Shown one piece after another: positions 2,790 through 11,716 of a DNA stretch of 31,982 nucleotides. The stretch's first letter is position 1, and the number at the start of each line of letters is the position of its first letter. Under the pieces are notes generated by a model, which saw nothing but the letters and a program-made list of their open reading frames with translations, ran no database searches and was not told where the DNA came from. This stretch comes from Promethearchaeota archaeon Loki_b31 (GTDB lineage Archaea; Asgardarchaeota; Lokiarchaeia; Sigyniarchaeales; SOKP01): assembly GCA_005222975.1 (NCBI GenBank), contig NJBI01000039.1, positions 1 to 31,982 of the forward strand, written 5' to 3'. Position numbers and translations under genes: made by a program.

Positions 2790-3974
2790 ATGGTCAGCAT
2801 AAAAGAAGAGATCAAAAAAGATATTATAAGTAGATTTGAACAAGAAATCGAAAAATTTTATCTTGGTGAGCCCCATAAATCTGTCTCACAGATACATCAA
2901 GAGTTTAAGGAGCATTTCAGTGATAAAACAATCCAAAACATTGGTAAAACCTACTTTCCTGAAGATTATAAAATAATGTATAGTAAACCTAAAGTATCAC
3001 AAGAAGTGTATAAGGATATAAAGGTAAGAATTGCTAATGAAATTGAAAGTTTTTATTCAGGCTGTTCAGCAACCCCTCTTGAACATATTTATAAAGAATT
3101 TAAAAGTGTTATAAATTCTGTAGATACAATTTATTACATTGGGAAGAAAGAATTTCCTGATGAATATAATGATATCTGGGCAAGGCTACCTCTTCCAGAT
3201 GAAGTCATGAGAGAAATAATAAATAGTTTAAAAAAAGAGATTTCAAACTATAAGAATGGCATAAAACCGAAATCATTAAGTCGAATTCACAACGATTTTC
3301 AAGAAAGAGTAAAGTCTATTTCTGTTATTGCAAAGATAGCCAAAGAGAAATTTCCAAAATATTATGGTAAAATATGGACTAAAGTCAAGATTACGCCTGA
3401 AATTAAAAATAAAGCAATAAATAGGATAGAAGAAGAAATCGATGTTTATAAAAACAATCGTGAACCTATGTCAATACGAGATATATGGAAAGAGGGCTTT
3501 CAGCTTTATATGTCAGAGGGTCAGCTTGGTGAAATTGGAAGAAATGCCTACCCCGAAGATTATAAACTTATATGGGGTGCTTATAGATTACCTTTCGAGG
3601 TTAAAGAAAAATTGATAGAAACTATTAATAATGAGATTTCTAAATATGATTTAGGAAAGACACCAGATTCCCTACGCGAAATTCAGCGAAAGTTTGATAA
3701 GTGGGTTAAATCAAAAGATCATATAATTTCCATAGCAAAAAATGTGAACCCTGAAAAATATGACGAAATATGGAGCATCCCGCGTATTCCAGAGCATATT
3801 AAAATTCAGGTAACAGAAGTAATAAGAAATGAAATTGATAAATACAATAAGGGAATTAAACCAAGAACCATTAAAGAAATTAGGGAGAATTCTTTTATTC
3901 AATTTATTCATGCAAAAGATACAATTAGTCGTATAGCTAAGGAAGCATTTCCCAAAGAGTACCTGCTTATTTGG
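2790..3974 (+). repeat. six protein-level tandem repeats of 66 aa (198 nt)
   Basis: Conserved Pro at aa 57, 123, 189, 255, 321, 388 and Y/W at aa 64, 130, 196, 262, 328, 395; consensus E-x3-I-x6-EI-x2-Y-x2-G-x2-P-x-S-x3-I...S-x2-TI-x2-I(A/G)K-x2-FP-x2-Y-x2-IW. Confidence 0.9.
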
Positions 3975-9502: not shown

Positions 9503-10177
9503 TTAATGATAATTATTGGGGTTGAACGATCTTATTATATCTTCTTCGTCGAATTCACCACTCCATTTTTCTTCTATTAAAACAAATTGTTCAGGATTGT
9601 TATTTGGATTTATAACGGAGTGGTAAGTCATTTTTGCGTTTAAAAACTCTATTCCATTTTCGACAAAATAATGTACTTTATTCCCGTTAATTATTATTGG
9701 TTTGCCTTTCAATACTTTCCATGTTTCACTTCTAAATTTATGAGTTTGGATGGAGATTCCTATCTTCGGTTTAATAAATATTAAATTATAATCAGGGTAT
9801 GTGAATTTAATACTGTACCACTTAGCTAAAGTGTCGATGTATCCATCTGGAACGTTATATTTCTTGCTAAATCGAATTGGGTTAAGAGTTTCTTTTTTAG
9901 ACGATTCGTACATATAAGGTTCATAAATTACTATATGACTAGAAATATCGATACTATATTTTACATTAATTTCCTCATTTCCTTTATTAATTACCATGTA
10001 ATAATTGTTTGGTTTGACAACTAGATTAAACATGCTTAAATTTTGAGTAAAAAAAGTAGTTCCATTTATAAGAAATATTTTTTTTAATGCATTTGAATCT
10101 ATCAGAATTGTTAGTTCTTCTTGCCCATTTTTTCTAAGATTTGTGCCTTTCTCAGGTTGAATTATCTCTTCTAACAT
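9503..10177 (-). CDS. cupin protein, mannose-6-phosphate isomerase type II C-terminal-like
   Basis: ISIQTHKFRSETWKVLKG...YHSVINP...IEE...FDEEDIIR resembles SLQxHxxRSEHW...H...EDDIxR. Confidence 0.7.
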   Translation of the reverse strand: MLEEIIQPEKGTNLRKNGQEELTILIDSNALKKIFLINGTTFFTQNLSMFNLVVKPNNYYMVINKGNEEINVKYSIDISSHIVIYEPYMYESSKKETLNPIRFSKKYNVPDGYIDTLAKWYSIKFTYPDYNLIFIKPKIGISIQTHKFRSETWKVLKGKPIIINGNKVHYFVENGIEFLNAKMTYHSVINPNNNPEQFVLIEEKWSGEFDEEDIIRSFNPNNYH

Positions 10178-10197
10178 CTTTTTAACACCTATATCGT

Positions 10198-11169
10198 CTA
10201 TATCACGTAAATATCTTTATATTTTTTGAAGCGTGCTTCAATTTCATCAATAAATGGCATTGATTCTTGCGCTCCTTTCCTCGTTACTGCTATTGAGGCA
10301 GCCACTGTTGCGTACTTTACCGAAGTGATTAAATCTTCCCCTTGATTTAACTTGCTTGCTAAAACTCCGTTGAAGCAATCTCCAGCGCCTACAGTATCAA
10401 CGGGTTTAACCTTAAAAGCGGGTATCTCAGTAATTTTATCTTCTGCAGCGTTATATATCATACATCCTCTACTGCCTAATGTAGTTACGATTGTTTTAAC
10501 TCCTAATTTTGAAATATCTTTTGAAGCTTGAATAATTTTACCTTTAGATTCGCCAACTAACTCTTTAAGATTTAAAAGCGAATGTAAACGTAGTAGTTCT
10601 CCCTCGTTGGGGATTATTACATCAATATTTCTCAAAATTGATAAACTAATTGGTTTTAACGGCGCAGGATTAAGAATTTTTACAGCCTTCCCTTGAACTG
10701 CTATTTTAAAAATTTCTTCAATTGAATCAATGGGAATTTCCATCTGAACGATCAAAGCGTTAGCTTTTTTTATGACTTCGGAATTTATTCGAACGTCTTC
10801 TGGCGTTAAATTGAAATTTGCCCCGGGCGCTACACTAATCATGTTCTCTCCGTTTTCGTCTATCATTATAAAAGCGATTCCACTCGATTCGTAAGGATCC
10901 CTTATAATATGTTCTATGTCCACGTCTTCGTTGTTTAATTGAGAAATCATTTGGTCTCCGTACGAGTCTATGCCGACCTTACCAATAAAAATAGTATTAG
11001 ACCCAGATCTCACAGAAGCTACCGCTTGATTCGCGCCTTTTCCTCCCAGGAATTGCTTAAATGTACCCCCAGTTACAGTTTCACCTGGTTCCGGTAACCT
11101 TTGCGAGTATATGTTTAAATCCATATTACTCGAACCAATAATTAGAACATATTGGTTGTTATTTGACAT
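10198..11169 (-). CDS. rbsK: ribokinase (PfkB family)
   Basis: GSSNMDL, PEPGETV, GGKGANQA, LNPAP, PNEGE, DTVGAGDCFNG. Confidence 0.93.
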   Translation of the reverse strand: MSNNNQYVLIIGSSNMDLNIYSQRLPEPGETVTGGTFKQFLGGKGANQAVASVRSGSNTIFIGKVGIDSYGDQMISQLNNEDVDIEHIIRDPYESSGIAFIMIDENGENMISVAPGANFNLTPEDVRINSEVIKKANALIVQMEIPIDSIEEIFKIAVQGKAVKILNPAPLKPISLSILRNIDVIIPNEGELLRLHSLLNLKELVGESKGKIIQASKDISKLGVKTIVTTLGSRGCMIYNAAEDKITEIPAFKVKPVDTVGAGDCFNGVLASKLNQGEDLITSVKYATVAASIAVTRKGAQESMPFIDEIEARFKKYKDIYVI

Positions 11170-11364
11170 AATTTTACCACTTTAAAATCGCGATTTTTCG
11201 AACTCTCTTCGCTTTATATTATCAATTTATGAAACATCACAATTAAAACCAAATGATTCTTAACGAATGGTTTTAATTTAATATAATTTTAAAAATAATA
11301 TTAAGCAACTTAAACATGCTTGAAAAAATATACTAAAAACTTAAAATAAACAAAGGTATTGATA

Positions 11365-11716
11365 ATGGCAAAAGATAAGATAATTGGCGCAATCGTCATG
11401 CTCCTTGGTATCCTTATCGCGGTAGTTTATACCATGGGAAGCGTCGTTGATTTATGGTTTGACACTCTTGGTAAGAACCCAGATTGGGACGCTGCCTTCC
11501 GATTCATAGGGGGTGTCGATTGGCTCGATTGGAGATTATTCACTGTTCTACCTCTCTGGATTATGGTATTATTAATAGCGATTATTGCTATATGGATCGG
11601 GTACAGCATGCTTACAGTATTCGAGCACTTCGCTGGATTCAAGTTAAACGCCGGCACCCGTTCCATTGGAAGAATTAGAGGAAGAATTAGCTGCTGAAGA
11701 AGAATCTGGAGAGTAG
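11365..11716 (+). CDS. small two-TM membrane protein, DPM2-like; spliced CDS join(11365..11615,11647..11716), 106 aa
   Basis: Removing the 31-nt insert gives ...WIGYSMLT-TPAPVPLEELEEELAAEEESGE*, matching the WIGY-x2-TTP-x-P-x-P-x-EE ending I recall for this archaeal family; the unspliced ORF stops at 11697. Confidence 0.85.
11616..11646 (+). other. 31-nt bulge-helix-bulge (BHB) mRNA intron
   Basis: Central helix GCUU(11610-13)/AAGU(11641-44); 3-nt bulges ACA(11614-16) and UAA(11645-47); intron stem-loop and exon-exon stem both present; canonical cuts restore the frame. Confidence 0.85.

Follow-up and report, generated by a model that had tools for sequence, protein, structure and literature searches.

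How does a short archaeal gene yield the conserved C-terminal tail of its protein when 31 nucleotides (nt) that several hundred homologues lack stand within one of its codons? This question is raised by a gene for a small membrane protein on contig NJBI01000039.1 of Promethearchaeota archaeon Loki_b31, the whole analysed stretch of which, 31,982 nt, is called the window here. A preliminary description of this DNA had taken the insert for a "textbook" bulge-helix-bulge (BHB) intron, i.e. for a substrate of the tRNA splicing machinery, in a gene of a probable Asgard archaeon. Based on the comparisons presented below we conclude that positions 11616-11646 are a fixed-position BHB intron in an Asgard mRNA that is very probably excised by EndA, the splicing endonuclease, together with RtcB, a reading to which we assign a probability of close to nine in ten.

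The insert and its position in the host gene

The host gene comprises 106 codons on the + strand (11365-11715; Table 1). Its true start is the ATG at 11365, which corresponds to the MAKDKIIG start of homologues, and not the TTG at 11359 of the mechanical open reading frame (ORF) call (11359-11367). The protein is small, with two membrane helices and an invariant tail that is first Pro-rich and then acidic, and a second copy of its gene was not found in the assembly. Excision of 11616-11646 joins AC/A (slashes mark splice points), which restores the reading ...SMLTTPAPVPLEELEEELAAEEESGE across the predicted spliced junction GCATGCTTAC/AACGCCGGCACC, and the frame continues as TPAPVPLEELEEELAAEEESGE to the stop at 11713-15. 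The unspliced frame, by contrast, runs to a stop at 11695-11697 and gives 110 residues with the C-terminus ...SMLTVFEHFAGFKLNAGTRSIGRIRGRISC. The coordinates that the preliminary description had assigned to the insert, the helices, the bulges and the hairpin were all reproduced, and both translation and homologues agree with its proposal that a cut after the second base of each bulge restores the frame.

Exon 1 retrieves 345 proteins from Asgard metagenomes, with names including Lokiarchaeota, Promethearchaeota, Hermod-, Thor- and Hodarchaeota, and the names on homologues and related contigs are of Promethearchaeota/Lokiarchaeia type, in line with the suspected Asgard host. The homologues match residues 1-85 at 99-100%. 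Among the 120 matches listed of these 345, 94 run unbroken through SMLT/TPAPVPLEELEEE and mostly have 105-106 residues, and in about a fifth, with lengths of 100 and 109-111 residues, the match breaks off precisely behind SMLT and gives way to tails that vary by allele, e.g. VFEHFAG..., GFVHIAE..., KSAHFAG... or CFRYFTG.... It is thus the TPAPVPLEELEEE tail that orthologues keep, as the preliminary description had expected of a spliced gene, and not the VFEHFAG... read-through. One intron-less 106-residue protein, encoded on an NCBI contig of 6,510 nt (P0003), is 100% identical to the window's in exon 1.

The host gene is present in 314 of 400 genomes of the phylum, among which matches ending at residue 85 are confined to the window's genus. 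A pattern search of 161 genomes of the class finds the insert at this site, termed site A, in 7 of the genus's 41 genomes; the remaining 120 lack it, and one metagenome scan contributes 15 more contigs. Alignment of the orthologous loci, which had been proposed as a check, places presence and absence of the insert at exactly one codon position and reveals BHB helices that covary (see below). Most of the 16 distinct site-A alleles (13) have a length of 31 nt, two have 32 nt and one has 44 nt; in 16/16 the cut after the second bulge base leads to an exact in-frame junction (...MLTTPAPVP...). All four pairs of the central 4-bp helix, H, form in 15 of them (4/4); the 44-nt allele forms three (3/4). 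In the 32-nt class read-through shifts to another frame and meets an early stop. The 44-nt variant (L055:3187-3285), whose helix H includes a G.A mismatch, folds as a pair of hairpins and may be an intron into which extra sequence has been inserted.

Helix H of the window's allele consists of the pairs G-U, C-G, U-A and U-A. The label "textbook" is too strong for the motif. In the intron stem a U.U mismatch takes the place of the second pair, and the exon helix beside the bulges reads U-A, A.C, C-G, G-C, A.C, C-G, i.e. it contains two A.C mismatches, and is followed by an internal loop before the long outer helix, in which 10 of 11 positions are paired (11592-11602/11656-11666). The motif in the window is therefore a relaxed, not a strict, hBHBh', h being the exon-exon helix and h' the intron hairpin.

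On folding of the transcript, exon sequence would pair with the 3' end of the intron to form the 4-bp helix and the two 3-nt bulges, flanked by the intron hairpin on one side and the long exon-exon helix on the other. A heteromeric tRNA-splicing endonuclease would then cut each bulge after its second base, and RtcB would ligate the exons and probably circularise the 31-mer. Translation of the spliced mRNA would yield the 106-residue protein with the invariant acidic tail, and unspliced RNA would give a product of 110 residues whose basic tail is unrelated and unselected.

The enzymes for these steps are encoded in the same genome, which contains two EndA paralogues of about 200 residues each (PF01974; C13, C79) and one RtcB gene (PF01139; C84), all above the curated Pfam cut-offs. 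Asgard EndA has been described as a heteromeric (alpha-beta)2 type with an L1 loop that broadens specificity (PMC5829648), and an enzyme of this type would suit a relaxed BHB. ARAGORN recognizes only 23 tRNA genes in this 92%-complete assembly, of which 12 contain introns (6-160 nt). Interruptions probably hide many other tRNA genes from recognition, and a report of heavily interrupted Asgard tRNA genes (bioRxiv 10.64898/2026.10.13.758758) is consistent with this. The idea that this lineage splices an mRNA with its tRNA-splicing machinery is thus backed by the comparative tests and by the EndA and RtcB genes, and from these we infer cleavage and ligation.

Table 1. Features of the host gene, its BHB motif and neighbouring genes in the window
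Feature	Position	Strand	Remarks
Exon 1	11365..11615	+	codons 1-83 and first two bases of Thr codon 84; from translation
Site-A BHB intron, 31 nt	11616..11646	+	missing at the same point from several hundred homologues; geometry; covariation
Exon 2	11647..11715	+	third base of Thr 84, then TPAPVPLEELEEELAAEEESGE, TAG stop; spliced-frame purifying selection
Unspliced read-through ORF, 110 aa	11365..11697	+	basic tail ...GTRSIGRIRGRISC; version given by gene callers
Central helix H, 5' strand GCUU	11610..11613	+	pairs with 11641-11644 (AAGU)
Central helix H, 3' strand AAGU	11641..11644	+	pairs with 11610-11613
5' bulge ACA	11614..11616	+	predicted cut after 11615; junction restores frame
3' bulge UAA	11645..11647	+	predicted cut after 11646
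Intron hairpin h'	11617..11640	+	9 pairs, one U.U mismatch, one bulged G, loop ACUUC
Exon-exon helix h, 5' strand	11592..11609	+	pairs with 11648-11666
Exon-exon helix h, 3' strand	11648..11666	+	pairs with 11592..11609
Mannose-6-phosphate isomerase-type cupin and PfkB sugar kinase	9503-11169	minus	divergent, upstream of host gene; order conserved across genus
Beta-propeller protein, 373 residues	12552-13673	minus	Pfam cut-offs passed

Covariation, coding selection and further inserts

As the BHB shape is at chance level by itself, our case is built on comparison and not on the fold. In a gapless alignment of the 13 alleles of 31 nt, which are related and on one of which the structure was defined, 90.9% of the cells are paired, four pairs are changed on both sides and the covariation score is 0.147 vs 0.115 in shuffles, with none of 500 as high. 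If the partner is slid by 1-3 columns in this set, pairing falls to 24-48%. With all 16 alleles, in an alignment that was built on a covariance model and leans towards the structure, 89.3% are paired, 8 pairs and 22 cells are changed on both sides and the score rises to 0.240 vs 0.132 in shuffles (0/500 as high). Over these 16 alleles helix H reaches 98.4% pairing, and two of its four pairs have changed on both sides; h and h' are paired to 86.6% and 89.3%, respectively, and h' shows both-side changes at five of nine pairs.

The clearest case is helix H, where the exon Leu codon CUU goes with AAGU or AAGC and the codon UUG with an intron end of CAAC or CGAU, the resulting variants being GCUU/AAGU or AAGC vs GUUG/CAAC or CGAU. 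In the exon-exon helix, pair 19-62 switches from C-G to U-A at the third base of one Ser codon and of one Thr codon, both of them synonymous sites. Out of 14 exon-exon pairs intron-bearing alleles form 12.1 on average and intron-less ones 9.05, a comparison that is biased as the helix was defined on an intron-bearing allele.

Exon 2 is under selection in one frame only. Across 14 intron-bearing alleles the spliced frame contains 509 synonymous vs 76 non-synonymous pairwise codon differences; the corresponding counts in the two other frames are 6 vs 548 and 0 vs 581, and the three codon positions of the spliced frame have 4, 3 and 19 variable sites. Since selection acts on the spliced frame only and the gene is present in a single copy, the acidic tail must be translated, and the read-through tail is unselected.

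The suspicion voiced in the preliminary description that more such introns might be hiding proved correct twice, namely at a second site within the host gene and in the gene for aIF2-gamma of the same genome. At site B, 27 nt downstream of site A and within PLE/ELEEE, six genomes carry an insert of 30-31 nt: L069 (G248), L071 (G266), L070 (G167), L068 (G230), L072 (G221) and L073 (G181). G248 and G266, which belong to the window's genus, have both introns, and the other four represent two other genera. When about 185,000 species, each represented by one genome, were scanned, site B turned up in the same six only, and it is empty in the window, where the homologous point lies at about 11673/11674. 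The site-B helix H is UCGA/UCGA, followed by 3-nt bulges and 4/4 paired in five of six alleles; the inner hairpins have unrelated sequences. Cutting by the rule restores LEELEEE in 6/6 alleles (...PLEELEEE...), so that for sites A and B together the rule gives the conserved junction reading in all 22. The evidence at site B consists of parses and folds of individual alleles, a single structure string on the MAFFT alignment A5 being unfit for both length classes; thermodynamic folding recovers the BHB in several of them, and for G248 and G181 it is precisely the structure of minimum energy (z down to -2.9).

The sole aIF2-gamma gene of the window's genome contains a 29-nt insert in its P-loop (contig C32:7216-7244, minus strand). 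It has BHB geometry with H = AUGG/CUAU, bulges AAU and AAA and the loop AUUUC, and its removal at GHVDHG/KTTLV restores GHVDHGKTTLV.

Alternative explanations and the chance level of the motif

If the insert were never spliced and just tolerated, or if it disabled the gene, the 110-residue read-through protein or nothing at all would be made, and the acidic tail would have to be dispensable in these lineages. The read-through frame of the 31-nt alleles is indeed open to a nearby stop, and the window's allele folds weakly, but selection downstream of the insert is confined to the spliced frame, the tail is invariant across the family, the gene is single-copy and the helices covary. In addition, read-through of the 32-nt class enters a different frame and stops early, and altogether we consider this explanation improbable. 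The acidic tail, which must be expressed somehow, might also be reached by recoding, i.e. ribosomes might bypass the 31 nt in a hop similar to that in T4 gene 60 or might shift frame on the unspliced mRNA, and there is a hairpin within the gap. However, the matched take-off and landing codons with a stop right after take-off that characterize a T4 gene 60-type bypass are not found here: no stop follows the take-off codon ACA (11614-16), and a ribosome landing on the sole Thr codon available downstream would omit one of the two invariant Thr residues. Moreover, gaps of 30-44 nt at two sites of unrelated sequence would each need their own landing logic, and the way in which the exon Leu codon and the insert's 3' end compensate each other's changes suits an RNA helix rather than codon matching, making recoding a highly improbable way to produce the tail.

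Regulatory alternative splicing, with the intron as a switch between a spliced acidic-tail and an unspliced basic-tail product that are both functional, would accord with the lack of an in-frame stop in the intron of the 31-nt alleles and with the necessity of splicing to compete with translation. Yet the read-through tail is not conserved (0-6 synonymous vs about 550-580 non-synonymous differences), the 32-nt and some site-B alleles truncate differently and most relatives are without the intron, so that a switch of this kind appears very improbable. An assembly or sequencing artefact, finally, is next to inconceivable, as the insert recurs with sequence variants in 7 independent genome assemblies and in 15 contigs of several metagenome projects.

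Several points nevertheless weigh against excision of the insert by EndA and RtcB. Archaeal translation can start on nascent RNA, and splicing would thus have to outrun the ribosomes. The alleles behind the covariation counts are related, a single one of them supplied the structure and alignment A4 was fitted to that structure. Furthermore, the window's allele folds no better than dinucleotide shuffles (z = -1.18 for 91 nt and z = -0.18 for the 38-nt core), and mismatches adjoin both of its bulges. Finally, BHB-shaped motifs are not enriched over decoy bulge geometries in the whole 3.5-Mb assembly. The true 3+3 geometry gives counts of 2003 vs 1822-1991 in decoys with the design pairing rules and ORF-joining logic, 39 vs 33-42 with stricter stems, 3807 vs 3837-3881 with the loop motif and 755 vs 721-765 with the hairpin energy.

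The survivors of the scan are junk, and both the window's intron and the aIF2-gamma insert are missing from the list; at such stem quality discovery of BHBs from structure alone is hopeless. Unlike the shape, the register of the helix relative to the insert boundaries exceeds chance. A 4/4-paired helix at a given register is found at ~2.4% of positions (1,904,299 of about 78 million tested), and a paired helix lies exactly at the insert boundaries derived from protein alignment in four independent helix sequences, i.e. the 31-nt and the 32-nt class of site A, site B and aIF2-gamma.

Known introns, turnover and neighbourhood

Non-spliceosomal splicing of mRNAs by cutting and ligation is familiar from HAC1/XBP1 of eukaryotes, in which a short intron near the 3' end of the coding region is removed and the C-terminal tail is changed. 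In Metazoa ligation is carried out by RtcB, the endonuclease Ire1 reads paired stem-loops and not a BHB, and the process is a stress-regulated switch. The intron at site A resembles this system in being a short mRNA intron near the coding 3' end whose splicing would change the tail, but it differs in that a tRNA-splicing enzyme and a BHB would take the place of Ire1 and stem-loops, and there is no sign of regulation here.

Among archaeal introns the closest relative is that of the cbf5 pre-mRNA of Crenarchaeota, which is 16-44 bp long, is cut between the second and third bulge residues by a heteromeric endonuclease and has been gained and lost (Watanabe 2002; Yoshinari 2006; Yokobori 2009, PMC2738675). 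Both are short ORF-less inserts in a coding sequence with the same predicted cut position, both have a BHB that is often relaxed, compatible with a heteromeric endonuclease, and both come and go among relatives. In contrast to cbf5, the intron described here occurs in the Asgard phylum and in the gene for a small membrane protein that has two intron sites within 27 nt, and at site A its range is a single genus, in which even loci that are nearly identical differ in its presence. For cbf5 there are cDNA data and in vitro cleavage, whereas the site-A intron is known here from sequence comparison. In Haloferax volcanii HVO_1309 a BHB intron in the 5' untranslated region (UTR) has been demonstrated by circRNA sequencing and in vitro cleavage (PMC7714728). 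There, too, an mRNA is the substrate of the splicing endonuclease, but the intron lies in the UTR and the reading frame is intact. The BHB introns of archaeal tRNAs and rRNAs (Marck and Grosjean 2003) share the hBHBh' geometry and the enzymes with site A, and the tRNA genes of this genome are intron-bearing as well; the substrate at site A, however, is an mRNA, and the motif's exon halves consist of codons, which leaves the pairing to synonymous sites.

A 2020 study names cbf5 as the sole coding-sequence case in addition to the Haloferax 5' UTR intron (PMC7714728), and our literature search yielded nothing on such introns in Asgard mRNAs and, for archaea, splicing of coding sequences documented for cbf5 only. 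The BHB intron is thus without an earlier report in the literature searched, as regards both lineage and gene. If our reading is true, at least two mRNAs of an Asgard archaeon need splicing to yield working proteins, that for the host membrane protein and that for the essential aIF2-gamma. Standard gene callers mis-annotate such genes, and public databases carry the read-through products of 109-111 residues. The intron would also impose an RNA-structure constraint on nearby synonymous codon choice.

The turnover of presence and absence is unusually fast. A 43-row tree of pfkB, the gene next to the host gene, requires a minimum of 9 changes at site A, whose clustering is no greater than with shuffled labels; loci L006 and L061 differ in the intron although their pfkB sequences are nearly identical (distance 0.0009). 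Between L004 and L059 divergence peaks within the ~20 nt before and the ~45 nt after the insert, the remaining gene being nearly identical, and intron-bearing alleles of different clades share the same synonymous codon choices around the insert. These patterns fit either recombination, which would transfer or erase the intron along with a short stretch of adjoining exon, or selection that maintains the pairing; recombination is favoured because the differences reach beyond the helix. Fast gain or loss at near-identical loci would provide a tractable system for the entry of introns into coding genes, and their exit, in the lineage nearest to eukaryotes.

We tentatively speculate, at somewhat less than even odds, that the intron is one copy of an actively turning-over set of ORF-less mini-introns that colonise protein-coding mRNAs of Lokiarchaeia and move between strains with a flanking exon patch by reverse splicing and recombination or gene conversion. 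Were this so, the closest archaeal relatives of eukaryotes would rely on obligatory, routine mRNA splicing by tRNA-splicing enzymes. As to a multicopy element, a blastn-short search with the intron against the genome returned chance 11-15-mers only, the best of which lies within an ordinary ORF, and a selfish nuclease gene beside the intron was not found at the loci.

Gene order is kept at intron-bearing and intron-less copies, i.e. cupin, PfkB kinase, host gene, amidotransferase-like gene and beta-propeller. At some intron-bearing loci (L082:3748-5907, L069:5608-7866) an ORF of 720-750 residues replaces the downstream amidotransferase-like and beta-propeller genes. This ORF belongs to no Pfam family, its sole match being a weak CxC7 cysteine-cluster, and it is not located at the window or at G241.

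The host protein was also considered as a DPM2 or PIG-P homologue, but its similarity to both lies below the Pfam gathering thresholds of PF07297 and PF08510. The best PIG-P score is E = 8e-4 with 19.7 bits vs a cut-off of 39.3, and DPM2 reaches E = 0.06-0.39. An Atlas search likewise gave a weak DPM2/PIG-P lead only, and a profile search of the PDB with the host protein gave no match. The predicted topology and the adjoining mannose-6-phosphate isomerase-type cupin would fit a role in glycosylation, with DPM2/PIG-P membership below threshold. The beta-propeller protein downstream passes the Pfam cut-offs for the BBS7 beta-propeller, the BBS2 middle region, Itfg2, the lambda-carrageenase beta-propeller and FG-GAP_3, the first three of which are families otherwise typical of eukaryotes.
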